Shown: positions 12,228 to 60,000, numbered from the stretch's first letter. The stretch: 64,000 bases of DNA from a virus (IMGVR_UViG_3300047281_000098:32001-96000), one strand, 5' to 3'. Numbers and translations: made by a program. Notes: generated by a model from the letters alone, not told the origin.

Positions 12228-12906
12228 TCCAGTAAAATATGAATGTGAATTTTGTAAGAGAGAATTCGCAAAGGAAGCCACGGTATTCAAACATATATGC
12301 CAATACAAACATCGTTGGGTTGAACGCGACAAGAAGGGCAATCGTATTGGATTTCAAGCTTGGCTACAATTCTATACTCGCAACAGCACAAGTAAAAAGA
12401 ATAGGACCGTTGAAGAATTTATCAAAAGTCCGTACTACAACGCATTTGTAAAATTTGGCAATTACTGTGCGGAAATTAATGCGATAAGCGTCAGTAGATT
12501 CATTGATTGGTTACTGAAAGAACAGATAAAAATTGACACCTGGTGTCAAGACAGTGTTTATACAAAGTTTCTGATTGCTTATACCAGAATCGAAGATCCA
12601 ATGGACGCGATTGTTCGCAGCATTGAAACAACTATTAAATTAGCTGAAACAGAATCAATTCAATCACATGATTGTCTACGATATGGAAATGTAAATCGAA
12701 TTTGTTATGCCATTACCGCAGGGAAGATAAGTCCATGGTTGTTGTATCAAAGCGACAGCGGAACAACATTTCTGTCTAATCTAACTTCTGATAATGTTTC
12801 AATGATTCTTGATTATATCAACCCAGAGCAATGGGCTATTAAGTTCAAAAGATACCCAGAAATTGCTGCTGAAGTCAAAGCATTGTTACGAGCAGGTGGC
12901 TATTGA
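12187..12906 (+). CDS. Zinc-finger-containing hypothetical protein
   Basis: N-terminal CEFC.REF......KH.C. Confidence 0.65.
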   Translation: MPTLLNMIKTAETNPVKYECEFCKREFAKEATVFKHICQYKHRWVERDKKGNRIGFQAWLQFYTRNSTSKKNRTVEEFIKSPYYNAFVKFGNYCAEINAISVSRFIDWLLKEQIKIDTWCQDSVYTKFLIAYTRIEDPMDAIVRSIETTIKLAETESIQSHDCLRYGNVNRICYAITAGKISPWLLYQSDSGTTFLSNLTSDNVSMILDYINPEQWAIKFKRYPEIAAEVKALLRAGGY

Positions 12907-12931
12907 CATTTAATCCATAATCTGTTATAAT
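12903..12931 (+). promoter_or_regulatory. sigma70 promoter of the FxLRW array (leaderless)
   Basis: TTGACA 12903, TATAAT 12926; ATG follows 6 nt later with no RBS. Confidence 0.75.
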
Positions 12932-12937
12932 ACAGAT

Positions 12938-13273
12938 ATGAAGACATTATACGACCTTGAAAGTACGGGCTTACATAGTTTTAAGCGAGGTGAACTAACA
13001 TTGTTCACTGCTTATAGGCAGTCTGGCAAAAGTATGCTTAATCAATTGTACGGGACAATTATGACAAAAGGAAACTTTGAGATAACAGATCAGGCCCCAG
13101 TAGATGGAGAGACTTGGTATACTGTTGCGTGTGTCAGTGTCGTATGCGAATGGATGCGTGAGCAACCCAAAGAATTGTGGCACGAACACATTGACCTTAG
13201 GTGGATTCATTATTCAAACAAGTTTGACATACATGAAAAACTCTATACCGTGTTAGCACTGCGATGGAGCTAG
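12938..13273 (+). CDS. FxLRW-family member with N-terminal Walker-A-like fragment
   Basis: RGELTLFTAYRQSGKS at the N-terminus; ends VLALRWS. Confidence 0.75.
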   Translation: MKTLYDLESTGLHSFKRGELTLFTAYRQSGKSMLNQLYGTIMTKGNFEITDQAPVDGETWYTVACVSVVCEWMREQPKELWHEHIDLRWIHYSNKFDIHEKLYTVLALRWS

Positions 13274-13500
13274 AACTAAGTGAAGGTGGAATACACGGTG
13301 CCAGGTATTATATAGTCAGACCCTGGCCATGGGACTCGCACATCACCTGGCTCACAATGGAAGCATGGGCTATTGGAACATTCGGACCAGACGGTGGCTC
13401 TATTTGGAATAATCTTAACTCACGCTGGTATATGAATAATAGCAAATTCTGGTTTCGCACTGAAGCGGATCGTACTTTTTTTATATTAAGATGGCAATGA
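13264..13500 (+). CDS. FxLRW-family mini-protein
   Basis: WAIGTFG...FRTEADRTFFILRWQ. Confidence 0.75.
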   Translation: MELELSEGGIHGARYYIVRPWPWDSHITWLTMEAWAIGTFGPDGGSIWNNLNSRWYMNNSKFWFRTEADRTFFILRWQ

Positions 13501-13697
13501 GAATTCAAAAAGTGTCCAGCAGTGACAACATACATGCTCCTGGCGAATATATGTATAAAATTCATGACCACTGTAAAGATAGCGACACCCTGAGGGGGTG
13601 GAGAGACGAAATCAAGTTGGATTGTCTCATTTACTCCAATGTTGCTTATTTCAATACCGAAACAGATGCTATGTTTTTCATACTGAGATGGCAATGA
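13497..13697 (+). CDS. FxLRW-family mini-protein
   Basis: ATGA overlap; FNTETDAMFFILRWQ. Confidence 0.75.
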   Translation: MRIQKVSSSDNIHAPGEYMYKIHDHCKDSDTLRGWRDEIKLDCLIYSNVAYFNTETDAMFFILRWQ

Positions 13698-13858
13698 CTA
13701 CCAATTACAGTTGGCAGTACAATGGTGCTGCCCCGTTCATAGATATCATGCAATGGTGCGTTGATACTTTTGAAAATGCTAACTGGTCTGCCAACTGGGA
13801 AACTTTTAGTTTCAATAATGAAAAAGATTATGTTTGGTTTGTATTGAGGTGGCAATGA
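13694..13858 (+). CDS. FxLRW-family mini-protein
   Basis: ATGA overlap; WCVDTF...FNNEKDYVWFVLRWQ. Confidence 0.75.
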   Translation: MTTNYSWQYNGAAPFIDIMQWCVDTFENANWSANWETFSFNNEKDYVWFVLRWQ

Positions 13859-14097
13859 GAAAACTAATTCCAAATAATATAACTGTTACTGAACAGATTG
13901 CGATCCATCGTCAGTTTTTTAATATGGTTGGAAAATGGCGTCGTAGTCAGCAGCCTGTTTTAAGAAAGGATGAATACTTGCAGTGTTTGGAAGAGGACAG
14001 CGGTGTTCGGTGCCAATATAGTAGCGGTGGTCAGTTGACAGGATTCGAAGTTATTGATGAAAAGACTTATACCTGGTTTGTGTTGAAATGGACATGA
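13855..14097 (+). CDS. FxLRW-family mini-protein
   Basis: ATGA overlap; DEKTYTWFVLKWT. Confidence 0.75.
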   Translation: MRKLIPNNITVTEQIAIHRQFFNMVGKWRRSQQPVLRKDEYLQCLEEDSGVRCQYSSGGQLTGFEVIDEKTYTWFVLKWT

Positions 14098-14330
14098 ACG
14101 ATACTACAAGTTGGATTACCTTTGGTAAAGACCATTATCATTTAAACAGGGTAATGGAGCAGTGGTGTCACGAACATATCGGGCAAGGTGGATGGGCACA
14201 CGAAACACCAAAGGCTTGGGGATGTATGATGGGCGATAAGATTTGGGTAATGCATAGTATGTTTGGTAACACAACTTTTTGCTTTAAAGAAGAAAAAGAC
14301 TTTATGTGGTTTAAGTTGAGGTGGGCATGA
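14094..14330 (+). CDS. FxLRW-family mini-protein
   Basis: ATGA overlap; WCHEHIG...FKEEKDFMWFKLRWA. Confidence 0.75.
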   Translation: MNDTTSWITFGKDHYHLNRVMEQWCHEHIGQGGWAHETPKAWGCMMGDKIWVMHSMFGNTTFCFKEEKDFMWFKLRWA

Positions 14331-14554
14331 GTTTTATAACAGTTTCGCGTAATTTGAACGCTGATGAGTTAAGAGATTGGTTAGTCACCAATGTTGGAAA
14401 AGAGATCGGCAAGGGAGCTTATGCTAGAAAATGTGGCGACGGATGGGACTTGGATACGACCATTGGTTACAGGGAAATTCCCGCTGTCTTAAAATGGGGC
14501 ATAACCATTGATGACGAAGCATTAGCAGTATTTTTTAAATTGAGGTGGGCATGA
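14327..14554 (+). CDS. FxLRW-family mini-protein
   Basis: ATGA overlap; WLVTNVG...DDEALAVFFKLRWA. Confidence 0.75.
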   Translation: MSFITVSRNLNADELRDWLVTNVGKEIGKGAYARKCGDGWDLDTTIGYREIPAVLKWGITIDDEALAVFFKLRWA

Positions 14555-14865
14555 ATAATAAAACAATTGAAGATTTTGTAATCCGTTACGGTGCCAAAGT
14601 AAATTACGAACAAAGACGCGACTATAATACTTATAATACTATGGGTAGGGCAATGGATTACTATTCATTGGATTACTATGGCAATGGTAACAGCATAGTA
14701 GGCATTGAACTACCTTTAAAGGCATTTGAGCACTTAGTCAACTCGGATAATCAAGCTGATGTAGACTATCAAGCTGGTAAGGAAGAGGCTCGCATTCGTG
14801 CTCGGTATCCATCAGTAGCAGAAGCGTATGCTCAATATAAAATGTTACTTGAACTATGCAGATAA
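14551..14865 (+). CDS. Unrelated hypothetical protein inserted in the array
   Basis: ATGA overlap; lacks the motif and ends YAQYKMLLELCR. Confidence 0.7.
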   Translation: MNNKTIEDFVIRYGAKVNYEQRRDYNTYNTMGRAMDYYSLDYYGNGNSIVGIELPLKAFEHLVNSDNQADVDYQAGKEEARIRARYPSVAEAYAQYKMLLELCR

Positions 14866-15251
14866 TTGAATATATTAAAGACAAGTATCTAACTTGGCGT
14901 ACTGGCCAAGATAAGCAAACACGCGATTGGAATAAGTGGTTGTATGAAACTGTTCTATTTCGTGCTGACACGATTGAAAATATGTTTGTGAACTTTAAAT
15001 ACATACTACCAGTGTCCGTAGAGATATTTGATCTTGAAGAACCGTTTGGATGGGCACTGGGCGATGACATTCGACAGTATATGTATCCTAACCGAGCATT
15101 AGGTGACTGTGCGGTTCATTACTTTGCGCGTGGGTTTCGCCATCAATGGGATGGTCGCTTTCACCTTAATGAAATTAGCGGTGGTGATCAAGTGTTTATA
15201 GCAACTAACAACAGCAAGGATGCTATGATGATAGCATTGAAGTATTCATGA
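14856..15251 (+). CDS. Divergent FxLRW-family member
   Basis: Ends NNSKDAMMIALKYS. Confidence 0.7.
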   Translation: MQIIEYIKDKYLTWRTGQDKQTRDWNKWLYETVLFRADTIENMFVNFKYILPVSVEIFDLEEPFGWALGDDIRQYMYPNRALGDCAVHYFARGFRHQWDGRFHLNEISGGDQVFIATNNSKDAMMIALKYS

Positions 15252-15580
15252 ACGATTTACAAATAGAAATACACAAGCGCACTATGAAGCTGCTATCTAC
15301 TGTAATGGCACAATCTATTATAGGGGTGCAACCTATGCCAAATACTGGTATCTTCAATGTAAGGTTTAGTAAATCTAAATATAAATTCAACCGTGCTAAA
15401 TGGTATGTAGCAGTGTATAACTACAACTATTATTACGAAGTAGTTGAATGGTGTGCTGAACAGTTCGGCCCACATCCCGAGCAACCAGATGCTTGGAGTC
15501 GTTGGGTACACAAATACGAAGATACGATTCACTTCCGTGATGAAAAAGATTATATTTGGTTTACATTGAGGTGGTCATGA
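15248..15580 (+). CDS. FxLRW-family member with N-terminal major-capsid-like GVQPM fragment
   Basis: AQSIIGVQPMPNTGIF at the N-terminus; WCAEQFG; FRDEKDYIWFTLRWS. Confidence 0.75.
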   Translation: MNDLQIEIHKRTMKLLSTVMAQSIIGVQPMPNTGIFNVRFSKSKYKFNRAKWYVAVYNYNYYYEVVEWCAEQFGPHPEQPDAWSRWVHKYEDTIHFRDEKDYIWFTLRWS

Positions 15581-15765
15581 AATTACTGGAAGACTACTCA
15601 GTATCATTGAGCGCAGACAGATGGATCAAAATAAAAGAACAATTAACAAAAGTTGAATCTAATTCATTGGTGTCTATTACTTGGACAGGTCCGTTTGAAA
15701 GAACCAGAATATTACGATTTAAATCTGAGAATGATGCATTGATATTTGTATTGAGGTGGAGCTAA
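15577..15765 (+). CDS. FxLRW-family mini-protein
   Basis: ATGA overlap; FKSENDALIFVLRWS. Confidence 0.75.
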   Translation: MKLLEDYSVSLSADRWIKIKEQLTKVESNSLVSITWTGPFERTRILRFKSENDALIFVLRWS

Positions 15766-16016
15766 TGATTACATATAAAGTACTGTGGACCGAGTTACCA
15801 CATATTAAAGTACCGGTATTACACACGGTAATGTATGCTCACAGTACAGATGGAGTAGACGCAAAATATCAACGAAGTTATAAGGATCATTTAGTAGATG
15901 AGTGGTTAAAAGCAAACTGTCGGGCGCCTTACTATCACTCTACCTATCATACAGAAAAGTTTATACAATTTGAAGATGATGAAGATGCTATGTGGTTTTC
16001 TTTGAGGTGGTCATGA
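15765..16016 (+). CDS. FxLRW-family mini-protein
   Basis: TAATG overlap; WLKANC...FEDDEDAMWFSLRWS. Confidence 0.75.
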   Translation: MITYKVLWTELPHIKVPVLHTVMYAHSTDGVDAKYQRSYKDHLVDEWLKANCRAPYYHSTYHTEKFIQFEDDEDAMWFSLRWS

Positions 16017-16273
16017 TATATAACGAAATAGAACAAGACATTATAAACAGAGCAGGCAAGGAACTATCCAGTGAAATTGACTTCCATGTACTTGCTGATT
16101 TATACTCACAAGACGGCTGGACTGAAGTTAATTTGCCGAGACAGCCCAGAGAAACAGTAGTTGAGATTCTATCCTGGTGTGCGAGTCATAATATTAAGTG
16201 CTATGGCAGAGGGCAACGATGGGTGTTTGAGAAGAAGCAAGACGCCTTGTTCTTTAGTTTGAGGTGGGCATGA
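16013..16273 (+). CDS. FxLRW-family member with N-terminal capsid-like helix
   Basis: IEQDIINRAGKELSSEIDFHVLADL; ends FEKKQDALFFSLRWA. Confidence 0.75.
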   Translation: MIYNEIEQDIINRAGKELSSEIDFHVLADLYSQDGWTEVNLPRQPRETVVEILSWCASHNIKCYGRGQRWVFEKKQDALFFSLRWA

Positions 16274-16449
16274 TTGTTACATTACCATATGATCCAGCAT
16301 GGAAAGCATTAGAATGGGCTAAAGACCATTGTCCTGATTATGTTACTAATGAAGTACACCCCCACAAAGCATGGATTCGCCCGATTCAGATTGACTACTT
16401 CTTTTCGTCCGAGCGAGATGCTGTATTTTTTAGTTTGAGGTGGGTATGA
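16270..16449 (+). CDS. FxLRW-family mini-protein
   Basis: WAKDHC...FSSERDAVFFSLRWV. Confidence 0.75.
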   Translation: MIVTLPYDPAWKALEWAKDHCPDYVTNEVHPHKAWIRPIQIDYFFSSERDAVFFSLRWV

Positions 16450-16691
16450 AATACTTTAGCAGTAGCGGAGGCAACAATAAACCATACTTTGCCCATCGTA
16501 TTAAATTACCCAAAGTGGTTAGTGAAGCATATGACTGGTGCTTAGAGTACCCAGATCAAGATAGACCCTTTAGAAGATTCCATGTAGAATGGGATCATTA
16601 TCCAGAGGGAAAATACGGGCATAAAGGTTATGAAATTATTCAATTTGAGTGGGAAGAAGCCGCCATTATGTTTACATTGAGGTGGTTATGA
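16446..16691 (+). CDS. FxLRW-family mini-protein
   Basis: WCLEY...FEWEEAAIMFTLRWL. Confidence 0.75.
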   Translation: MKYFSSSGGNNKPYFAHRIKLPKVVSEAYDWCLEYPDQDRPFRRFHVEWDHYPEGKYGHKGYEIIQFEWEEAAIMFTLRWL

Positions 16692-16957
16692 GAGTAGAGT
16701 TTAGACAAGGTGTGCCTGACGGATGTGCCCGGTGGCTACGTGAGAATGTTGGACTGGGTAATATTGAGGAAGACAGCAACAACAAGAGAACACGGCAGGG
16801 GATGATTGACATGCCTGAGTATGCTTGGTTCTATGAGCGGGTAGCAATTATACCCGACGATGCCTTGAGTCTGCTTTACGAGTCCATTCATTATGTTCCT
16901 ACTATCACAGTTAAAGATCCCGAGTTGGCTACATTTTTTAGTTTGAGGTGGTTATAA
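16688..16957 (+). CDS. FxLRW-family mini-protein
   Basis: WLRENVG...KDPELATFFSLRWL. Confidence 0.75.
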   Translation: MRVEFRQGVPDGCARWLRENVGLGNIEEDSNNKRTRQGMIDMPEYAWFYERVAIIPDDALSLLYESIHYVPTITVKDPELATFFSLRWL

Positions 16958-17172
16958 TGGTAGACTGGCTTAATGACAGCTCTGACGAAGTTTATTGCGC
17001 TGATTCAGAAGCGTTTGAAAACTTTTTTCATGACTTCTGCCTAAATGGAAAAGCCAAAGGAGCAGAATGGGGTCCTGACTATTGGGAACAACATGGCATT
17101 AAGGTTGTGAACAGTAGAGTAGAATATGATACCCCTGCACATCGCACTATGTTTTTATTGAGGTGGTTATGA
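16957..17172 (+). CDS. FxLRW-family mini-protein
   Basis: TAATG overlap; YDTPAHRTMFLLRWL. Confidence 0.75.
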   Translation: MVDWLNDSSDEVYCADSEAFENFFHDFCLNGKAKGAEWGPDYWEQHGIKVVNSRVEYDTPAHRTMFLLRWL

Positions 17173-17432
17173 AGAAACCTAAACCAAAGAAGCCAAAAGC
17201 TAAAATACCCAAAGGTGCATTGATAGTTGACTACGGCTTGTATCGTGTAATCCTACCTTATAAACACCCGATTGACTTGTATAATAACAAAGAATTAGAT
17301 ATAATATGTGAATGGTGCGATAGAACATTTCCAAAAGATGATTGGAGATGTAGCAGAAGTAGCTGGCCAGGTCATGTCTACTTTTTAAAAGAAAGCTATC
17401 TGACAATGTTTTTATTGATGTGGGCAAAATAA
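17169..17432 (+). CDS. FxLRW-family member with Lys/Pro-rich N-terminus
   Basis: WCDRTF...FLKESYLTMFLLMWAK. Confidence 0.7.
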   Translation: MKKPKPKKPKAKIPKGALIVDYGLYRVILPYKHPIDLYNNKELDIICEWCDRTFPKDDWRCSRSSWPGHVYFLKESYLTMFLLMWAK

Positions 17433-17433
17433 T

Positions 17434-17874
17434 ATGGTTCAGCTAACTAGACCTGTACCGCCAAAACCAAGCATGATACCGTGGCCATATAAGTTGCCTC
17501 GCAATAAATTAGAAAGACAAGAAGATATGGCTAAATGGGAAATACATAAACGAGCAGGCAATCTAGTAGAAGCTGCTTGGTGGCACTGGATGCCAGGGGT
17601 AACAATTAATGTTAAATGGCCTGTTGGTTTAGTATTTGTGCTTGATGAAAAAGATCGTCGGTGGGATTGGACCATGGGAACAACCAAGCAATCATTTGAC
17701 TCGGCGGACCCTAACGACCATTATAGACCTTGGCTTGAAAAGAATGTTGGCAAGCAGGGATGGGATTGGCAATGGGGACTTAGAGATAACAACGCAGCAG
17801 AGAATAGACTTACTATTAAAGTTAGAACTAAACATGCCAAGTGGGCAACAGTCGCCTCACTTCTGTGGGGATAA
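17434..17874 (+). CDS. Divergent FxLRW-family member
   Basis: WLEKNVGKQGWDW...WATVASLLWG. Confidence 0.7.
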   Translation: MVQLTRPVPPKPSMIPWPYKLPRNKLERQEDMAKWEIHKRAGNLVEAAWWHWMPGVTINVKWPVGLVFVLDEKDRRWDWTMGTTKQSFDSADPNDHYRPWLEKNVGKQGWDWQWGLRDNNAAENRLTIKVRTKHAKWATVASLLWG

Positions 17875-17877
17875 GTA

Positions 17878-18099
17878 ATGGATTTTGACTTCAACAAGGA
17901 AAAGCGATTTATCCTTGTCCCTGCTAATCTTGAGTTTTCAAAACTCATGGTCATACTAACTGATATGGACTATTGGAACACACATTACGAAGCACTCAAA
18001 GACTGGTGCGATCTACAACTAGGAACTAATCAAGTTGGGATGACGGTTGAGTTCGACAGTGAGCAGGACCTGATGTTGTTTATATTAAGATGGAGCTAG
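17878..18099 (+). CDS. FxLRW-family mini-protein
   Basis: LKDWC...FDSEQDLMLFILRWS. Confidence 0.75.
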   Translation: MDFDFNKEKRFILVPANLEFSKLMVILTDMDYWNTHYEALKDWCDLQLGTNQVGMTVEFDSEQDLMLFILRWS

Positions 18100-18100
18100 A

Positions 18101-18367
18101 GTGAAACACATATTCAGAAATTTAATTCGCAAAGAGAAATGGACTCTTGTGGAAATTAAGCCGACCAAGGACACAATGTGGTCTTCTGGTGGGGAAGATT
18201 TAAATCGGCAAGACTATATTAAAATGCGGAATTGGTGCGAACAAACTTTTCACAAAGAAGTATTCGCCACTTCATTACAATCAGTACACGGAGTTAGTCC
18301 TGGATTGAAACGATTCATATTCAACAATCCCGCAGATGCCACGATGTTCAGATTGCGTTGGGAATGA
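18101..18367 (+). CDS. FxLRW-family mini-protein
   Basis: WCEQTF...FNNPADATMFRLRWE. Confidence 0.75.
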   Translation: MKHIFRNLIRKEKWTLVEIKPTKDTMWSSGGEDLNRQDYIKMRNWCEQTFHKEVFATSLQSVHGVSPGLKRFIFNNPADATMFRLRWE

Positions 18368-18597
18368 CTAAGACCTCTGTTACAGTTTACGGTGCGTATG
18401 CTCCAATGCTAAAATGGCTAAGTGACAACATAGGCGCGGAGCTTCACAGTATGCCAATTGTTTTTTGGTACGGAAAAGGTTGGTTCATGAAACGCACATC
18501 TGATATTAGAGAAGAAAGAGTTGGACTCAGGGCTGGCTGGTCAGTTGATTTTGATGATGATCAGAATGCGACATGGTTCGCATTAATATGGGGATAA
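18364..18597 (+). CDS. FxLRW-family mini-protein
   Basis: WLSDNIG...FDDDQNATWFALIWG. Confidence 0.75.
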   Translation: MTKTSVTVYGAYAPMLKWLSDNIGAELHSMPIVFWYGKGWFMKRTSDIREERVGLRAGWSVDFDDDQNATWFALIWG

Positions 18598-18598
18598 T

Positions 18599-18874
18599 AT
18601 GGCAATTTTAAATACACACGCACATGGATACTTTAGAGCAGTTGAATACGAGACAATAGAAGTAATAGACATGCCTCGCACCTACGGCGCCAAGAAAGTA
18701 TACACGTATGATTGTAGGGCAAAGTCAGAAGATCCAAGCATTATTGTAAAATGGTGCAGAAGAAACTTTGGGCAGCGAGGTGATGGTTGGGACTTTACTT
18801 TTCACTCAGACCGTGTTACAATAGAGATTACAAAAGACGAGTTTAAGACAATGTACGAAATGTGGAAACTATAA
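18599..18874 (+). CDS. Divergent FxLRW-family member
   Basis: WCRRNFGQRGDGWDF...FKTMYEMWKL. Confidence 0.7.
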   Translation: MAILNTHAHGYFRAVEYETIEVIDMPRTYGAKKVYTYDCRAKSEDPSIIVKWCRRNFGQRGDGWDFTFHSDRVTIEITKDEFKTMYEMWKL

Positions 18875-21551: not shown

Positions 21552-22532
21552 ATGTTTGATATTCTATCTATATTACCTGGCAAGAAAAAAACAACGAGTA
21601 GCGGCTGGACAAGTTTCAACGCTGTTTGTTGTAGCCATCTTGGACACAAGTCCGATCGCCGTATGCGCGGCGGTATTAAGTTTGACGGTCAATCCAAATG
21701 GACCATGAACTGTTTCAATTGTAGATACTCATGTAATTTTGTATTAGGCAAATCAATAAGCCCAAAAACTAGACAGCTTCTTATTTGGTGCGGTATTGAC
21801 AGTGAACAGATTCAACGATGGAGTCTGGAGAGTTTACAACATAAAGACTTACTGGACTTTTCAGGTGACGTTCTACCTCGTAAAAAAGTAAAATTCAAAG
21901 AGCAGGAATTGCCAACTGATGCTGAATTAATAAACGTAAACAACCCTGATCATAAGATATACACTGACTATTTGATCAAACGACATATTGATCCTAATGA
22001 ATATCCGTTTATGGTAACTCCGCATATTCAGGGTAGAAATAACAATCGCATAATTGTACCGTATACTTATAAAAATAAGATCGTTGGACATACTAGTAGA
22101 TACCTAGATAATAAATTACCAAAGTATATCAATTCTCAACAGCACGGATATGTATTCGGATTTGACTTTCAAAAACCTGAATGGAATATATGTCTGGTAG
22201 TTGAGGGTATATTTGATGCGCTGAGTTTGAATGCGTGCGCTACAATGCATAACACAATCAATGACGATCAAGCACAGGTATTAGCACAGTTAAACAAACA
22301 GATAATAGTAGTACCGGATAGAGACCGTGCCGGATTAGAAATATGTAGTCGTGCGTTAGAGTTAGGATATAGTATTAGCTTACCAAATTGGCACGTTGAT
22401 GTAAAGGATGTTAACGATGCGATAATCCGTTACGGAAAGCTTCCAACGCTAATGAGTATATTACAAGCAGCCACGATGTCTAAAATTAAAATCGAAATGC
22501 AAAGGAAAAAAATTGAAAAAACAAGAATCTAA
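21552..22532 (+). CDS. gp61: DNA primase (gp61-like)
   Basis: N-terminal Zn motif (CC...CFNC); TOPRIM VVEGIFDA, PDRDRAG, KDVND. Promoter TATAAT 21538 favours the second ATG. Confidence 0.85.
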   Translation: MFDILSILPGKKKTTSSGWTSFNAVCCSHLGHKSDRRMRGGIKFDGQSKWTMNCFNCRYSCNFVLGKSISPKTRQLLIWCGIDSEQIQRWSLESLQHKDLLDFSGDVLPRKKVKFKEQELPTDAELINVNNPDHKIYTDYLIKRHIDPNEYPFMVTPHIQGRNNNRIIVPYTYKNKIVGHTSRYLDNKLPKYINSQQHGYVFGFDFQKPEWNICLVVEGIFDALSLNACATMHNTINDDQAQVLAQLNKQIIVVPDRDRAGLEICSRALELGYSISLPNWHVDVKDVNDAIIRYGKLPTLMSILQAATMSKIKIEMQRKKIEKTRI

Positions 22533-23952
22533 GAAACAACTTGAATATACTCCTGATGTTCAGAAATTATTTTTGCGAATGATGATAACTAACTCGGAGT
22601 TATACACCCGTGTTATGAACATTATGAACAGCGAGAATTTTGACAGATCGCTGCGCCCAGTGGCAGAAATGTTTAAAGAACATACTGACAAGTATAAGAT
22701 TTTACCTGATGCCACTCAGATTAAAGCAACAACCGGGATTGATATTGAACCGGTGCCTGAATTAAGTGACGGACATTTTGAATGGTTCTTTGATGAGTTT
22801 GAAGCATTCACTAAGCGACAGGAACTTGAGCGTGCGATTCTTAAAGCAGCAGACTTGCTTGAGAAGGGTGATTTTTCTCCTGTGGAAAAGCTAATCAAGG
22901 ACGCAGTTCAAATTAGCCTACAGAAAGACATGGGGACTGACTACTTTGCTGACCCCGCACATCGTATCAATAAGTATTTTAACTCAGGTGGTCAAGTATC
23001 AACTGGCTGGCCACAGATGGATCGTATTTTGTACGGTGGCATGAGTCGCGGCGAACTTAATATCTTTGCAGGTGGCTCTGGTTCTGGTAAGTCACTGGTC
23101 ATGATGAATTTGGCATTGAATTGGCTACAAGTTGGATTGAGCGGAGTTTATATTACACTAGAACTTTCAGAAGAACTAACCTCACTGCGTACTGATGCGA
23201 TGTTAACCAGTATGGGAACTAAAGATATTCGTAAGGATATTGACAATACTGCTTTAAAGGTAGCATTGATAGGGAAGAAGTCTGGTAAGTATCGTGTCAA
23301 GGGACTACCTGCGCAAAGTAATGTCAATGATATTCGTGCTTATCTGAAAGAAGTTCAAATTCAAACTGGTATCAAGATCGACTTTGTTATGGTCGATTAT
23401 CTTGACTTGGTTATGCCAGTATCTGTTAAAGTTAACCCCAACGACCAGTTTATTAAAGACAAATATGTAGCTGAAGAATTGCGAAATTTAAGCAAAGAAT
23501 TAGGCGTGTTGTTAGTTACAGCATCACAGTTGAATCGTTCAGCAGTTGATGAAATTGAGTTTGATCATAGTCACATTGCAGGTGGTATCTCTAAGATTAA
23601 TACAGCGGATAACGTGTTCGGTATCTTCACAAGCCGTAGTATGCGTGAACGTGGTAAGTATCAGATTCAATGTATGAAGTCGCGTAGTTCAACAGGTGTT
23701 GGTATGAAAGTTGATTTGGAATACAACATTGAAACGATGCGTATTACTGACGATGACCCTGAGGGATATGCGGATCAGCAAGCAAAATATACTCCTAAAC
23801 CTAGTCCTAATGATTTAATGACTAGGATGAAGCCTACTCCATACACTGATATTTCTCAACTATCAGATAATTCAGAACCACTGACCAAGAAAATAGTGGC
23901 AAATGTTCAGGGTAGTAAACTAAATGCGCTACTGAATAGTTTAAAGAAATAA
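22513..23952 (+). CDS. gp41: Replicative DnaB-like helicase (gp41-like)
   Basis: STGW, GGSGSGKS, LELSE, VDYLD, TASQLNR, KSRSS. Confidence 0.92.
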   Translation: MKKQESKKQLEYTPDVQKLFLRMMITNSELYTRVMNIMNSENFDRSLRPVAEMFKEHTDKYKILPDATQIKATTGIDIEPVPELSDGHFEWFFDEFEAFTKRQELERAILKAADLLEKGDFSPVEKLIKDAVQISLQKDMGTDYFADPAHRINKYFNSGGQVSTGWPQMDRILYGGMSRGELNIFAGGSGSGKSLVMMNLALNWLQVGLSGVYITLELSEELTSLRTDAMLTSMGTKDIRKDIDNTALKVALIGKKSGKYRVKGLPAQSNVNDIRAYLKEVQIQTGIKIDFVMVDYLDLVMPVSVKVNPNDQFIKDKYVAEELRNLSKELGVLLVTASQLNRSAVDEIEFDHSHIAGGISKINTADNVFGIFTSRSMRERGKYQIQCMKSRSSTGVGMKVDLEYNIETMRITDDDPEGYADQQAKYTPKPSPNDLMTRMKPTPYTDISQLSDNSEPLTKKIVANVQGSKLNALLNSLKK

Positions 23953-36897: not shown

Positions 36898-38547
36898 TTA
36901 AATTACGGGAGGGAACGGGTCCGGAGCTACAGTCAATATAGTTGACAGTGCTTGTCTCTGAGGAATAGATGTTCCATCTGTTAACAATGTGGTTGCTGAG
37001 TTATTTATAAATGTAGATTGCTGTGCGCCATCTGTACTAGTAAATCCGGTATCTGTTCTTACGTTTGATGATATTCTAATCCATATTCTACCGTCCCAAC
37101 GATATAGCAATTGAGGTAGATAATCAGTGCGTAGGAAGTAGTCACCTATTGCCGGTGTGACTGGGAATGCTATGCCTGTGCCCACAGGTAATCCATTAGG
37201 TGCTGCTTCTGTTCCTGTCAAATAACCAACTGTATAGCCAAATGATCGAGGACTATATCTTGAAATAAATTGAAATGCAGGGTCAACATCTGATCTAAAG
37301 TCCATTAAACTAGTCACGGCCCAATCTATTCCTTCTTGTGCCGGATCTTGATCTGTAGTAGCATACATATTATCAGCAGTGCCATATGGACCAGAGACCG
37401 ATCCCAAACTTTGAACTGATAGTATAGTATCACCCTCTACTGGACCTGATCCGCTTCCAATTGATGTAGGGTCTAGTGTGATAGTTTCTAAACTCATTTG
37501 TAGGAAAGCTGCGATAGCACTATTATTTGTATTAGCTGGTAATCTAATAACAGGACTAGCTGTTTTATACTTAGGAGATCGCATCATTACTATAATGCCT
37601 CCACCTAAGGTGAATGAATTTGTATTGATATCTGTCGGCGGGGCCGGCTGATTAAATTTACCAGACTCTATGCCGTATGTAGGTACTACATACAGATTAC
37701 TATTATCATATCCTGATTTAGGTAGCAATCTTGCTGCTTCAACTAAAATAGCATCATTAACTGCGATATTTTTATTATAAGTTGATAATATATCTTTTAA
37801 ATTTTGATTTGTATCGGGTGCCCAATATACTGTATTAGGCGGAGCAATACCAATAGGTACTGCTTGAGTAGAGGTATAATTAGTATCACCGTAAGTAATT
37901 ACGTATCCTGCAGGATACGCCTCAGTAGCATTCCAATTACCCAAGTAGTTGTCTTGATTAATTGGAGCAGTAAGAATCTGTGAGAATTCTTGACTATCAA
38001 CTAATGGTTCGCATTTGATACGCCACAAATGAGGATACCAAGTTGCCGAAAAGCCCTCAGAGGCATAATTACTATCAGTAATCTGATAATATCTGCGCAA
38101 TGAAGTAGGTATGGTCTCATTTAATGGATTATAATCTAATAGGTGAGGGAGTTCAAATACATCACCTACCATTAGTTTTCGACCAATCAAGTCTATCATG
38201 TCATTATAATGAACAGTAATAAACAGGATGTCATTATTTAAAAATAAACCAAATTGACTCAAATCAAAGTCAAGATTTTGAACATTGTAATGACCACGTA
38301 TTCTGAATATATCTGGTGCGTATGTTCTGTCACGATTTTCCAGAAAAAGCAAATCTTGTATGTTAGTTGGATTCAATTGATCATACTGAGGCTGAGTTGC
38401 ATCAATCGACGGGCCCTGATCAGTAGGACCCAAGTACTTGTGAACATACAAATCTGTTGCCCCAATGGTAAACATTTCTGATATTGTTCTATCAAAAAAT
38501 CTATAATCATTTGATTTTTGCGGTTTGTATAAACTTAATCTAGGCAT
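36898..38547 (-). CDS. Neck/head-closure protein gp14-like, extended
   Basis: DLLFLENRDR.Y, LSQFGLF, GD.FELPHL; adjacent to gp15-like; minus-strand TAAATA 38567. Confidence 0.65.
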   Translation of the reverse strand: MPRLSLYKPQKSNDYRFFDRTISEMFTIGATDLYVHKYLGPTDQGPSIDATQPQYDQLNPTNIQDLLFLENRDRTYAPDIFRIRGHYNVQNLDFDLSQFGLFLNNDILFITVHYNDMIDLIGRKLMVGDVFELPHLLDYNPLNETIPTSLRRYYQITDSNYASEGFSATWYPHLWRIKCEPLVDSQEFSQILTAPINQDNYLGNWNATEAYPAGYVITYGDTNYTSTQAVPIGIAPPNTVYWAPDTNQNLKDILSTYNKNIAVNDAILVEAARLLPKSGYDNSNLYVVPTYGIESGKFNQPAPPTDINTNSFTLGGGIIVMMRSPKYKTASPVIRLPANTNNSAIAAFLQMSLETITLDPTSIGSGSGPVEGDTILSVQSLGSVSGPYGTADNMYATTDQDPAQEGIDWAVTSLMDFRSDVDPAFQFISRYSPRSFGYTVGYLTGTEAAPNGLPVGTGIAFPVTPAIGDYFLRTDYLPQLLYRWDGRIWIRISSNVRTDTGFTSTDGAQQSTFINNSATTLLTDGTSIPQRQALSTILTVAPDPFPPVI

Positions 38548-49449: not shown

Positions 49450-49501
49450 AGTAATGCTCACTGTGATACTATTGTATAAATAGTAGATAGGGGTACATTA
49501 A

Positions 49502-54066: not shown

Positions 54067-57000
54067 ATGGCACAAAATAATATTGACTTCGGAACATTTC
54101 CGGATGATCCTAGCGCAGACGCGATACGAACAGCATTTCAAAAAGTTCAAGACAACTTTGATCAAGTATTTGCTGTAACTACCGGAGCATCAGTTACTTC
54201 AGTAAATAAGACGCCCGGGGTAGGCATTACTGTTAGTTCTCCGATCGGAGATGTAGTTGTCAGTGCTAATATCGCATGTGTTCAAGTTAGTACCAGCTCA
54301 CTAAGTATAGGACGCGGCAGTAACGGTGGAACATCAACTTCAATCACTGCGTCAAGTCAAATTTTAGTAATTGACATTAATCCAACTAATGTATTCTCAA
54401 ACAGTTTTGCAGCAGTCGGAGGCGGTTTAGCAAATATTACTGGAAAATTAACAGTAGCTGCTAATGCTCAACCAAACATTACATCAGTTGGTACTTTGAC
54501 TACTTTAGCAGTATCAGGCAATATCTCGGCTGGAAATGTTGCTGCGACCACATTTACTGGTAATTTTACTGGTAATGCCACAACAGCGGGTACAGTAACC
54601 ACTGCTGCGCAGCCAAACATAACATCAGTTGGTACATTAACATCATTAGTAGTAACCGGTAACATCACATCAGGCAATGCTAATTTAGGCAATTTAGCAC
54701 GTGCTAACTTTATTCAAGGGACATTAACCACTGCTGCGCAGCCAAACATCACAAGTACAGGTACACTGTCTTCGTTAGCAGTAACTGGTAACGTAACAAG
54801 TGGAAATGCTAACTTAGGTAACTTGTTAATTGCTAACTTCCATCAAGGAACATTAACAACGGCTGCTCAACCAAATATTACATCAGTTGGTACTTTAACT
54901 GCTTTAGCTGTTACGGGAAATGTCACTTCAGGTAATGCTAACTTAGGTAACTTGTCAATTGCTAACTTCATTCAAGGAACATTAACAACTGCTGCTCAGC
55001 CAAATATCACGTCTGTTGGAACATTAAGTTCTTTGGCAGTAACAGGTAACATTTCAGGTGCTAATCTAACTGGAACTCATTATGGCGCAGCAACCGGACT
55101 AACAGCAATTCCGGGTGCTAATGTAACTGGTACAGTAGCTAATGCGACATACGCAGTAAGCTCAGGCACGGCCGGTAGTGCTACTACTGCAGGTACGGTA
55201 ACAACGGCTGCTCAACCAAATATTACATCAGTTGGTACGTTAACTGCTTTAGCTGTTACGGGAAATGTCACTTCAGGTAATGCTAACTTAGGTAACTTGT
55301 CAATTGCTAACTTCATTCAAGGAACATTAACAACTGCTGCTCAGCCAAACATCACTTCAACAGGTACTTTAACTGCGTTAGCAGTAACTGGTAATATTTC
55401 TGGTGCGAATATCACAGGTACTCATTACGGTGCAGCTACTGGACTAACAGCAATTCCGGGTGCTAATGTAACTGGTACAGTAGCTAATGCGACATACGCA
55501 GTAAGCGCGGGGACAGCGGGTACAGTAACAACTGCTGCTCAGCCAAACATCACTAGTACAGGAACTTTAACTGCTCTTGCAGTAACTGGAAACATTACAT
55601 CAGGTAACGCCAACTTAGGTAACTTGTTAATTGCTAACTTCATTCAAGGAACATTAACAACTGCTGCGCAGCCAAACATCACAAGTACAGGTACACTGTC
55701 TTCGTTGGCAGTAACTGGTAACATTTCGGCTGGTAATGTTTCTGCTACGACTTTTACAGGGGCGTTCACTGGAAATTCAACTACAGCAGGTACAGTAACA
55801 ACTGCTGCGCAACCAAATATTACATCAGTTGGTACGTTGACTTCTCTAGCAGTTTCAGGTAATATTACGTCGGGAAATGTTTCAGCAACAACTTTCACCG
55901 GTGCGTTAACTGGTCTTGCTTCAAGTGCGACAGTAGCTGCTTCAGCAAACGCCGTAGCAGGGGCGAATGTAAGCGGGCAAGTAGCAAACGCATTAGTAGC
56001 CGGCACTGTGTATACTGCGGCACAACCAAACATCACTAGTACAGGTACTTTAACTTCGTTATCAGTGACCGGCAATATATCCGCAGCAAACGTAAATGCA
56101 GCTACATTTGGAGCACATAACGGAACAGTCGGAGCATCTACTCCTAACACAGTGGCAGCAACTTCGATAACAGCTACGACAACAATAGCTGCTACTGGTA
56201 ACTTGTCAGGTGCTAATATAAACACCGCTGGTGTTCTATCTGTCACGGGTAACGCTAATGTCGGTAATTTAGGTACTGCTGGATTAATCGTTGCAACTGG
56301 TAATATCACCGGTGGAAATTTAGTTACTGCTGGAAATTTATCAGTTACTGGTAATGCAATTATTACTGGAAATCTATCAGCCGCAGTATTCACGGGCGCT
56401 GGAACTGGGCTTACTTTCTTGCCAGGTGCTAATGTATCTGGCACAGTAGCTAATGCGACATACGCAGTAAGTTCAGGTACAGCAGGTAGTGCTACTACAG
56501 CGGGTACAGTAACAACTGCGGCACAACCAAACATCACTTCAACTGGTACTTTAACTGCGTTAGCAGTCACTGGCAATATCTCCGGTGCTAACATCAATGG
56601 TACTTTCTATGGCGCAGCAACTGGACTAACTTCAATCCCGGGCGCGAATGTAACTGGTACTGTACCACTTGCTGCAAGTGCTACTACAGCGGGTACAGTA
56701 ACAACTGCGGCACAACCAAACATCACTTCAACTGGTACTTTAACTGCGTTAGCAGTCACTGGCAATATCTCCGGTGCTAACATCACAGGTACTCATTACG
56801 GAGCAGCTACTGGATTAACTTCAATCCCTGGCGCGAATGTATCTGGTACAGTAGCCAATGCGACATACGCAGTAAGTTCAGGTACAGCGGGTACAGTAAC
56901 AACTGCAGCACAACCAAACATCACATCAGTTGGTATATTAACATCATTAGCAGTAACCGGCAATATATCAGGTGCTAATGTAACTGGTACACATTATGGG

Positions 57001-60000
57001 GCAGCTACTGGATTGACTTCAATTCCTGGCGCGAATGTATCTGGTACAGTGGCAAATGCGACATACGCAGTAAGTTCAGGTACAGCGGGTACAGTAACAA
57101 CTGCGGCACAGCCAAATATTACAAGCACTGGTACGTTGACATCATTAGCAGTCACTGGTAACATCTCTTCAGGAAATGTTTCAGCAACAACTTTCACCGG
57201 TGCGTTAACTGGTCTTGCTTCAAGTGCGACAGTAGCAGCTAGTGCGAATGCGGTAGCAGGCGTTAATGTAAGCGGGCAAGTAGCAAACGCATTAGTAGCC
57301 GGCACTGTGTATACTGCGGCACAACCAAACATCACTAGTACAGGTACTTTAACCTCATTAACTGTTACTGGTAATATTAATTCAGGCAATGTATCAGGTG
57401 GTAACTTAGTAAGTGCTACTTATCTACAAGGGACGTTAACTACTGCTGCTCAACCAAACATCACAAGTACAGGTACATTAACTTCATTAGCAGTTACTGG
57501 TAACATTTCAGGTGCCAATCTAACTGGTACTCATTATGGCGCAGCTACTGGACTAACTGCTATTCCAGGCGCGAATGTAACTGGTACAGTGGCAAATGCG
57601 ACATACGCAGTAAGTTCAGGTACAGCAGGTACAGCAGGTACTGTAACAACTGCTGCGCAGCCAAATATTACAAGTACAGGTACATTAACTTCATTAGCAG
57701 TAACAGGTAATATTACTTCAGGCAATGCTAATTTAGGCAATGCTGTCACTGCTAACTTCTTTGTAGGTAGCGGCCAGTATCTTACTAATTTAAATGCAGG
57801 TACTAATATTGTCAACGGAAATAGTAATGTAGTTGTCAGTCCAAATAGTAATATCACATTTGGAGTGGCCGGGGTGGCTGGTTTAGCAGTAGTTACGAGT
57901 ACCGGTGCTAATATTAATGGTTATTTAACAGTAACAGGTAATGTAAGTGCCGGTAATGTTTCTGGTACACGATTTACTGGTTTACTTGCTGGATCATTGC
58001 TAACTAACGCTCAGCCAAACATTACTTCAGTTGGAACATTAAGTTCATTAACAGTTAGTGGAATATCTAATTTAAGTGAAGTTGGTAACATAAAAATTTC
58101 AGGTGGTAGTTTAAATACTTACTTGACAACTGACGGCACAGGCAATCTTACTTGGACATCAGGTGCGTTTAGTCCAGTAGCCGGTTCAAATACACAGGTT
58201 CAATTCAATAATAATGGTTTATTTGGTGCCAGTGCTAATCTAACATTCAACGGTAATTTATTGTCATTAGTTGGTAATATGACTGCTGGTAACGTGACTG
58301 GTGCAAATCTGATGAGCGCCAATTATGTCACTGGTACACTAACAACAGCAGCACAGCCAAATATTACATCAGTGGGATCACTGACTAATCTAATTGTATC
58401 TGGTAATATTAACTCTGGTAATGTTGCCGGCGGCAACTTAGTAAGTGCTACTTATCTACAAGGTACAGTAACAACTGCGGCTCAGCCAAATATTACTAGT
58501 ACAGGTACGTTAAGTTCATTGGCAGTAACGGGAAATGTATCAAGTGGTAACGCTAACTTAGGTAACTTGTTAATTGCTAATTTCTATCAAGGAACTTTAA
58601 CAACTGCTGCCCAGCCAAATATCACGTCTGTTGGAACATTAAGTTCATTAGCAGTAACAGCTAATATTCAAGCTGGTAACTTATATTCATCTGGCGTATT
58701 GCAAGTAACAGCTAATGCTAATGTTGGTAATTTAGGCACTGTTGGATTAATATCAGCAACTGGTAATATAACCGGTGGTAACTTATCAACTGCAGGCGCG
58801 CTGTTAGTAACAGGTAATGCTACTGTTGGTAATATTAGTGCTACAACACATACAGGCGGAACTGTCAATGTAACAGGTAATATCACTGGTGGTAACTTAA
58901 TCACTGGTGGTCTTGCATCAGTAACAGGTAATATCACTGGTGGGAACGTAATCACTGGTGGACGCGCAACCGCAACAGGTAATGTCACTGGTGGAAATTT
59001 AGTAACGTCAGGTGCACTAAGTGTTACTGGTAACGCTAATGTAGGTAATTTAGGTACTACTGGATTAATTACTGCGTCTGGTAATATTACTGGTGGTAAT
59101 ATTATAACATCTGGTTCAATATCAGTAACAGGCAACGCCTCAGTTGGTAACCTGAGCACTGTTGGGCTAGTAGTTGGAACAGGCAATATAACATCCAATG
59201 CGAATGTTGTAACAAACAATATTTTAGGCAGAACGACTGGGGTGACAATTACTGCTGTTGGTATTGATCAAAACATCTCACTAGTCCCAACAGGCACTGG
59301 GTCAGTTGATGTCGCAAGCAAAAATATTACTAGTTTAGCAGAGCCTGTTAATGCAACAGACGCTGCTACTAAAGCATATGTAGATGCAGTTGCATCTAAC
59401 TTAATTGTCAAAGCGGCATGTCAGTTAGCAACTACAGTAGCACTTGTCGCAAACTACAATAATGGAACAAGTGGTGTTAATGCGACATTAACTGCTACTA
59501 CTAATGTAGTATTGCCAAATATTGATAGTTATCCTGACACTCAAGTAGGATATCGTATTCTTGTCAAGAATCAAGCAACTACTCAACAAAACGGTATTTA
59601 TGTTGTTACTAGTTTAGGTGAAGCAGGAATTTCTCCTTGGATACTTACCCGGGCAACAGATTTTGACGGTAACAACCCTCTTTCAGAAATAACAGCAGGT
59701 GATTTTACTTTCATTCAAGAAGGTACTACTCAAGCAAATTCGGGATGGGCTGAGACCGCAGTAGGTACAGGTCTGCCGGGTGAATATATCATCGTAGGAA
59801 CTGACCCGATAACATTTACTCAGTTTTCAGGCGCCGGAACGTACACTGCTGGCACAGGATTATCATTAATTGGTACTCAGTTCAGTATAGCAAATACTAC
59901 AATAACTCCAGCTTCATATGGTGGTTCTACTGCTATTCCTACTTTCACTGTAAATCAACAAGGTCAGTTAACAGCAGCAGGTACAGCAGCAGTCATTGCC

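Follow-up and report, generated by a model that had tools for sequence, protein, structure and literature searches.

In the Gol/Lit/EF-Tu exclusion associated with prophage e14, a short linear segment of the phage T4 capsid protein gp23 acts outside the folded capsid protein (PMC3014915). This segment, Gol, comprises 29 residues within the first quarter of gp23, and nowhere else is that protein so conserved. It binds to domains II-III of EF-Tu, inhibits the GTPase of this factor and renders it susceptible to cleavage by Lit; the free Gol peptide activates Lit (PMC3014915). The N-terminus of gp23 is also reported to direct fusion proteins to GroEL (Snyder and Tarkowski 2005, as cited in PMC3012670); in this case, a property passes from an N-terminal capsid piece to the foreign protein that follows it in the fusion. 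Defence systems are often triggered by capsid proteins (PMC9712102, PMC13728456). A protein's partners can also be titrated by its fragments, as in the case of dominant-negative and inhibitory fragments (PMC9245647, PMC10769210). Some small early phage proteins, such as the antitoxin mimic Gp145 of ICP1, counter defence by mimicry; they are proposed to bind a component of host immunity because they resemble its natural ligand (PMC13728456).

The gene presented here is found in a window of 64,000 nucleotides, which is the whole stretch of viral DNA that was analysed. It codes for a protein of 110 residues in which a capsid-derived head precedes a C-terminal domain ending in F-x-L-R-W. It is important to compare this protein with the systems described above. 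Gol corresponds to the same capsid stretch, since the profile of the protein family is aligned with residues 95-131 of gp23, a range in which residues 100-128 are included. However, the stretch in the window belongs to a separate phage mini-protein, probably an early one, in which it is mounted on a folded carrier. The major capsid proteins (MCPs) of Pfam PF07068 (Gp23) share with it the head, which is homologous to the N-terminal ~55 positions of the profile, but the window protein is without the HK97 fold, the A-domain and the propeptide, and its remainder is unrelated. The fusions targeted to GroEL were engineered, whereas the mini-proteins are natural. In comparison with the laboratory fragments, the fragment in the window would be naturally evolved, mounted on a carrier and encoded in the same genome as its parent. 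The known anti-defence mimics copy host molecules or DNA, and none is reported to copy the phage's own trigger protein. The internal proteins of T4 are likewise small, and in both cases an N-terminal peptide could address the protein to the prohead core; in contrast, the head in the window copies the MCP and is not a capsid-targeting sequence, and the promoter is of the early type. A capsid-targeting sequence, a tag of ~10 aa ending in L/I-x-E, was considered for residues 1-13 (MNDLQIEIHKRTM) and rejected, as this segment does not contain the motif and its sole Glu is preceded by Q-I. No literature on capsid decoys or mimics, or on phage copies of their own trigger peptides, was found, and the November 2026 review of phage counter-defences (PMC13728456) mentions no capsid decoy. 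Likewise, neither a description of the LRW domain family nor a paper containing the sequence strings was found in the literature.

The window comprises bases 32001-96000 of a 105-kb viral fragment from IMG/VR. This fragment is estimated to be ~30% complete, and the full genome should therefore be of about 350 kb. A tail-sheath stabilizer of the T4 gp15 type, a sheath protein, a DnaB-like helicase and an ORF of 3094 aa are encoded in the window, which is why the phage is regarded as a jumbo T4-like myovirus. The 3094-aa product comes from a single ORF (54067-63351, plus strand) situated among structural genes. No match to PF07068 was found in the 105-kb fragment, and the record's own capsid gene is outside it; for this reason, the capsid proteins of related records were used for comparison. 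The related IMG/VR records, which include the complete genome G001 (364 kb, with terminal repeats), are the source of the lineage MCPs of ~400 aa (e.g. L082).

The positions of the features are collected in Table 1. The gene is the tenth member of a coupled array of LRW mini-genes and belongs to the 'KYKFSR...FxLRW' subfamily, with which it shares the C-terminal W-C-x-x-x-F-G helix and the terminal F-x-L-R-W. Its start ATG overlaps the stop of the preceding gene (ATGA). At the other end, the protein finishes with FTLRWS, encoded by TTG AGG TGG TCA TGA, and the ATG of the next gene (15577-15579) overlaps the stop (TCATGA). As in the array family, the codons of the LRW motif form at the same time the Shine-Dalgarno-like ribosome-binding site of the next gene. 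Residues 1-12 of the protein are conserved in L003 and P0003. The two genes located directly upstream, at 14551-14865 and 14856-15251 (both plus strand), end in LELCR and ALKYS and not in LRW, and no family match was found for them.

Table 1. Positions of the features discussed in the text; coordinates refer to the window unless another record is named
Feature	Position	Strand	Basis or remark
Perfect sigma-70 consensus promoter (TTGACA, 17 nt spacer, TG, TATAAT)	12903..12931	+	12/12 matches, extended -10
Array of ~23 coupled mini-genes, nearly all ending F-x-L-R-W	12938..18874	+	ORF list
First array gene, Walker-A-like head DLESTGLHSFKRGELTLFTAYRQSGKS (RecA/DnaB-type ATPases)	12938-13273	+	Pfam AAA_25 E 0.024
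Whole gene, 110 aa + stop	15248..15580	+	ORF list and sequence
Capsid-derived head, residues 14-40, KLLSTVMAQSIIGVQPMPNTGIFNVRF	15287..15367	+	homologous to T4 gp23 ~101-128, lineage MCP 71-104
GVQPM core, residues 26-30	15323..15337	+	exact in 59/120 homologues
C-terminal LRW-type carrier domain, residues 44-110 (67 aa), beta-alpha-beta-beta-alpha	15377..15577	+	alignments A1, A2; AF2
LRW codons TTGAGGTGG (15566-15574), doubling as SD-like GAGGTG for next gene	15566..15579	+	direct sequence reading
TATAAATA late-promoter-like sites	37002-37009, 49475-49482	-, +	structural-gene region
Reductase/polymerase-string heads (proteins P0123, P0093, P0103, P0144, P0204, P0206, P0088, P0099, P0116, and a locus of L094)	L094:1501-1872	-	

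The ORF is a genuine gene, and its product belongs to a widespread family of phage mini-proteins (~70-150 aa) which occurs in uncultured jumbo T4-like phages of ~350 kb. These proteins are built of a flexible head of ~40-55 aa followed by a C-domain of ~67 aa, and about half of them have the capsid head. The C-domain contains 16-20 invariant positions (alignments A1, A2), which include K44, Y45, F47, R49, W52, W68 and C69 as well as G74, R85, W86, F96, L107 and W109. In all clusters (150 or more at 50% identity) it is located at the extreme C-terminus, in proteins of 39-156 aa, and is never fused to a known domain. The AF2 model, calculated with an alignment of 83 rows, gives the C-domain a pLDDT of 87-94. 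In front of it, the model has a helix at residues 3-22 and an unstructured section at residues 23-52 with a pLDDT of ~54. Because this flexible stretch precedes a confident C-domain, the head looks like a displayed linear peptide in the model.

The C-domain has no family in Pfam or PHROGs and, in a Foldseek search of the PDB, nothing at E≤0.001. The best row of the wide VIA-align comparison, with a Z of 5.7, is the N-terminal domain of Pol II (residues 38-97, rmsd 1.8 over 50 residues). The next rows are ACT, KH and RRM-like at a Z of 4-5; the two-layer alpha/beta arrangement is a widespread one, and no convincing structural relative emerged from these comparisons. The matches in the ESM Atlas are unnamed viral clusters only. 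Megablast and tblastn searches of cultured phages with the window gene gave nothing useful, and the C-domain was not found in cultured phages by tblastn of the homologue P0002 against 50,697 phage records.

The original prediction held that a segment of the gp23 family is joined at the N-terminus to an FxLRW domain, and this is what is found in the window protein. The T4 segment which it gave is also correct, as residues 100-128 of gp23 in the T4 record are RRAIPNLIAFDICGVQPMNSPTGQVFALR. The window ORF was aligned by BLASTP with the MCP of a related complete phage at E 3e-4 over residues 14-43. The copy in the window is worn: it keeps TVMAQSIIGVQPM and IFNVRF, while the upstream P-x-IR...P half is lost, and only 9 of 39 residues are identical to the MCP segment without gaps. 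The window protein by itself has no match in Pfam at E≤1, no family in PHROGs and no BLASTP alignment with T4 gp23. Its closest relative (89% identical) keeps the core, and the NTG of the window protein, which has been likened to the PTG of T4, is DSS in that relative.

Although the window protein taken alone is a weak case, the statistics at the level of the family settle it. A search of 5.8 billion proteins returned 255 homologues at E≤0.01, from 60 to 190 aa in length, many of which carry a precomputed match to PF07068 (Gp23). In Pfam, 23 of 32 homologues match this family at E≤1, with a best E of 6.3e-13, and small ORFs in the relatives exceed the gathering cut-off, which the window protein does not reach. 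A comparison with gp23 profiles was one of the two checks by which the original prediction could have been refuted, and in addition to the Pfam result, the family profile was aligned with T4 gp23 by hhalign over 37 columns (gp23 residues 95-131) with 95% probability and E 2.9e-8. Residues 9-58 of P0002 have 46% identity to gp23 of Aeromonas T4-like phages (E 2e-5), and gp23 genes were its sole matches among the 50,697 phage records. In an unbiased search, 171 heads of the family were compared with every G001 ORF that reaches 250 aa (146 ORFs). It gave 69 matches at E≤0.01, compared with 0.6 for shuffled heads, and 65 of the 171 heads match the G001 MCP, the best with E 5.6e-16. The lineage capsid segment ILPVIRRVMPTVIANELVGVQPMTGPVGQIHTLRVRY and heads such as IMPIIRQVTPTLLANSILGVQPMTGPVGEIFTMKANY are up to 59% identical over 39 aa.

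The conservation of GVQPM was the second check, and the motif is kept in about half of the homologues, the exact form being present in 59 of 120 and a near-exact one in 65. Neither check refuted the original prediction. In the 41 head-bearing members of alignment A3, the G, V and Q are invariant and the P and M are at least 90% conserved. By these comparisons the capsid likeness of the head is homology and not chance. The idea of a chance resemblance of a short motif, for which the missing Pfam match and the missing alignment of the window protein with T4 gp23 could be cited, is refuted by the Gp23 matches, the tblastn and hhalign results, the shuffled control of the head search and the match of the window protein to the MCP, and has practically no probability left.

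The section of the capsid protein represented in the longest heads begins at the predicted mature start of the capsid protein, just past an L-A-E site of the T4 protease type. It extends through the first strand of the P-domain, corresponding to T4 gp23 ~83-131, and includes both the Gol region and GVQPM. The matches of the relatives' heads to the Gp23 profile are confined to positions ~2-61 of 376. In T4 gp23, residues 66-105 form a flexible N-arm, and L106 is the first ordered residue of the P-domain (PMC9546572). V19 of the window protein is aligned with L106, and its residues 14-40 represent the last part of the N-arm together with the first ordered strand. The N-arm faces the scaffolding core in proheads and later makes contacts between capsomers; the head-length mutations A94V and G97S lie in it, as does the portal contact M98, while residues 106-131 belong to the subunit's own P-domain and are not an interface (PMC9546572). 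Thus, the capture of a capsid epitope, as originally predicted, stands in so far as the head is a true, diverged copy, but what was copied is more than an epitope, namely the mature N-arm with the first P-domain strand.

The window protein has the conserved segment of the N-arm and first strand with GVQPM, but at 110 aa it does not contain the full-length HK97 fold of the 376-position profile. Since only a fragment of the MCP is present, the gene product is not a capsid protein. It is also homologous to the Gol peptide, which is taken here to occupy residues 100-128 of gp23; in the window copy, this homology covers the central and C-terminal parts only.

The capture of the segment turned out to be ancient, a refinement of the original prediction. 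The heads in four head-MCP pairs, two of them from the same genome, were compared with the lineage capsid segment of the G001 MCP. They share 17-23 of 44 residues with it, and the nucleotide identity is 44-48%. At the third codon position the identity to the capsid gene is 18-30%, that is, random, and about one third of the identical residues use identical codons. The pooled pN/pS values of the head and the C-domain are 0.34 and 0.22, from ten pairs at five loci that are few, not independent and near saturation at synonymous sites. The random third positions together with a pN/pS of ~0.3 point to selection on the head at the level of the protein. As judged from these sequence comparisons, the capture is ancient, and it is the amino acids and not the DNA that selection has kept. 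Accounts at the level of DNA, whether a recent capture or gene conversion with the capsid gene, as well as a homing-site or recombination decoy or a repair template, were rejected on the same random third positions and few identical codons.

The sigma-70 consensus promoter directly precedes the first gene of the array. No T4-type late promoter (TATAAATA) was found in the array, and the whole 64-kb window has only 2 such sites, compared with 6.2 expected by chance. Because of the perfect promoter and the array free of T4-type late promoters, we infer that the gene is expressed early, together with ~22 coupled paralogues under a single sigma-70 promoter and well ahead of the capsid protein. One of the two late-promoter-like sites precedes the gp15-like gene by ~115 nt, and the other is located among tail genes.

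Similar arrangements are observed in G001, which has ~29 small ORFs ending in LRW. They are found mostly in two arrays, at 51.4-57.3 kb (plus strand) and 200.3-204.2 kb (minus strand), and a few LRW genes are isolated, including a capsid-headed one at 13.5 kb (plus strand). Capsid or reductase-like heads are present in 3 of the LRW ORFs of this genome. A pair of its KYKFSR-subfamily genes (200856-201209 and 201472-801) is separated by ~260 bp, with one LRW gene between. The array gene of the window at 13264-13500 (plus strand), which starts with MELELSEGG, shares ELELSEG(R/G) with LRW genes of relatives. A marginal likeness (E 0.08) was seen between this gene and EQELSEGRV in a 521-aa protein of the GP88 family (PF17338) in G001, and a second LRW protein matches elsewhere in the same 521-aa protein, also marginally (E 0.015). 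The loci concerned, besides the window gene, are G001 54643 (plus strand) and L114:5988-7550 (minus strand).

The explanation we favour, although it is on balance doubtful, is that the head would be a protein-level mimic which competes for whatever reads new capsid protein. In such a mechanism, the head would be a look-alike of a linear peptide, shown on a stable carrier domain. It would occupy the partner that reads the nearly immutable stretch on fresh, unassembled capsid protein. The readers on record for T4 are EF-Tu, which then becomes the substrate of the suicide protease Lit, and GroEL; in other hosts the reader may be another capsid-sensing defence. Bound without the rest of the capsid protein, the head could blunt or pre-empt this reading and would be an antagonist decoy. 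A decoy for capsid sensors was one of the two functions suggested in the original prediction. The homology, the selection at the protein level, the display-like anatomy, the early timing and the known readers of the stretch are all consistent with this proposal. Several considerations stand against it. By analogy with the free Gol peptide, which activates Lit, one would expect activation, and not blocking, from a peptide that copies an activating ligand. A decoy produced early cannot exceed the capsid protein or EF-Tu in number, and could only saturate a scarce sensor. In addition, the head is dispensable for the family, and the copy in the window is eroded, as its few identities to the MCP segment and the absence of a Pfam match indicate.

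The dispensability of the head is seen from the phylogeny. On the tree of the C-domain, which has 183 rows but only 68 columns and is poorly resolved, the head type changes 74 times, compared with 97 for shuffled labels and a minimum possible of 4. On the well-supported (starred) branches alone, the capsid head must have been gained or lost at least 9 times, and 18 of the 183 members are almost headless. The same capsid head is found in relatives on at least two further LRW paralogue subfamilies, which makes at least three in all. As far as this tree can be read, the head is facultative and is often exchanged on a constant C-domain. These observations could also mean that the head in the window is a decaying or neutral remnant, the C-domain being the functional part and the heads coming and going by cassette shuffling. 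The worn state of the window copy, without the P-x-IR...P half, and the few invariant positions of the head in comparison with those of the C-domain would agree with this. However, GVQPM with its flanking residues has been retained in the window, in the relative of 89% identity and in about half of the family, and the head persists although the family is only 50-60% identical overall. The pN/pS value of the head, even with saturated synonymous sites, and the recurrence of the same head on three subfamilies argue in the same direction, and we consider a remnant unlikely.

A role in the phage's own head morphogenesis could also be imagined, in which the look-alike of the N-arm binds the scaffolding core, the portal or the capsomers. 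The head has the extent of the mature N-arm, starting near the predicted L-x-E maturation site and finishing with the first strand of the P-domain, which would be suitable for this, and its T4 counterpart is the section described above that faces the scaffolding core and holds the head-length mutations and the portal contact. In such a role, the mini-protein would either be loaded into proheads as an injected internal protein or time and modulate assembly. This is nevertheless improbable, as the promoter is of the early type and the array lacks T4-type late promoters; in addition, residues 1-13 are without a capsid-targeting motif. Furthermore, other heads apparently copying non-structural enzymes would be left unexplained.

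The head might instead be an address tag which takes the LRW domain to EF-Tu, the ribosome or GroEL, where the C-domain would act, for example in a takeover of host translation or folding. The inhibition of the EF-Tu GTPase by Gol, the targeting of fusion proteins to GroEL by the gp23 N-terminus, and the position of the C-domain as the most conserved part of the protein are compatible with such a function. On the other hand, the same C-domain is present in headless members and in members with unrelated heads, and no fold or family from Pfam, PHROGs, Foldseek or VIA-align assigns an activity to it. An address tag is for these reasons quite improbable.

A further alternative is a weapon against rival T4-like phages, an early dominant-negative capsid fragment that would disrupt the formation of heads in related phages that co-infect or superinfect the same cell. 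Inhibition of rival capsid assembly was the other function suggested in the original prediction. No stretch of T4-type capsid proteins is more conserved than the one copied, and a fragment of it would therefore act broadly, protein fragments being capable of dominant-negative action. However, the phage's own segment would be poisoned too, the MCP segment being identical across three related genomes, and residues 106-131 of gp23 are not an interface. We regard this alternative as very unlikely.

Returning to the proposal that the head mimics a capsid segment, it is necessary to consider the heads which are not derived from the same section of the capsid protein. Many members have short strings equal to signature motifs of further core proteins of the complete relative, either instead of the capsid stretch or next to it, and the evidence for these is weaker. 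Some heads contain TNLCKEI-LP and others, independently, TNPCGEI-L, to be compared with YQSNLCCEILLPT in the reductase of the complete relative. These strings of the reductase loop occur in the class I (NLCxEIxLP) and class II (NPCGEIxL) forms. The strings KMLLNSVYG and D-I-D/N-S-L-YP correspond to RKILLNSAYG and VDINSLYPS of the relative's polymerase, that is, to motif B (K-x3-NS-x-YG) and motif A (D-x-x-S-L-YP) of polymerase B. Heads with GGFKKGEM-IISAGRQTGKS resemble the P-loop of the helicase, and heads with GAFYAPYIP resemble AAFYCPYIPLM of the capsid protein. Several non-capsid strings sometimes follow in a row within 60 residues, and some are found alongside GVQPM or FYAPYIP.

In the search with 171 heads, one head matches the G001 reductase (E 1.2e-5) and three match the C-terminal motif of the capsid protein (E≤0.01), while no match at E≤0.01 was found to the polymerase or the helicase among the 146 ORFs. 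The matches of the non-capsid heads in Pfam are all sub-threshold (DnaB_C 0.18, AAA_14 0.0044, Ribonuc_red_lgC 0.0099), and the assignment of these heads therefore rests on the short motifs and the one reductase match. The P-loop type of head is present in ~20 members of the KYKFSR subfamily, and its profile finds the DnaB-like helicase of the window (22513-23949, residues 193-216) with E 3e-4. Taken together, the heads with such strings, which may be described as collages of immutable motifs, are a strong lead and not a result. Another array member, the ORF at 16013-16273 (plus strand), starts with IYNEIEQDII...SSEIDFHVL, which has a weak likeness (BLASTP E 1.0) to the spine helix ITAEIDQEIL of the capsid protein. 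The strand RWVFEKKQDA of its C-domain resembles RWTFEAAQDA of the capsid protein (E 0.004).

The mimicry proposal could be extended to an early system of motif display, in which mini-proteins with one carrier would present the least mutable core peptides of the phage itself and would blind the sensors of the host. This wider proposal must be considered unlikely at present. The set displayed would comprise the N-arm/Gol stretch, the C-terminal strand and the spine helix of the capsid protein, and also the thiyl-radical loop of the reductase, motifs A and B of polymerase B and the P-loop of the helicase. The gene in the window would be one such cassette.

Bacterial defences often sense phage proteins that are hard to change, above all the capsid protein, and the known route by which phages escape is point mutation. 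To our knowledge, the Gol stretch is the only T4 capsid peptide with a biochemically defined reader (EF-Tu and Lit). If the mimicry proposal is true, there would be a second route of escape, a dedicated early mini-protein that copies the very stretch which is read. It would also provide a testable handle on what reads nascent capsid protein in cells, and on the 25-year question of why Gol is the most conserved part of gp23. If the motif display is true, phages would have a general means of countering pattern recognition in bacterial immunity. Whatever the function may be, the LRW mini-proteins form a large unannotated family (at least 150 clusters at 50% identity) that is restricted to uncultured jumbo phages. 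Their gene architecture is also unusual: the C-terminal domain stays the same, while peptides conserved in core proteins serve again as interchangeable heads in front of it.
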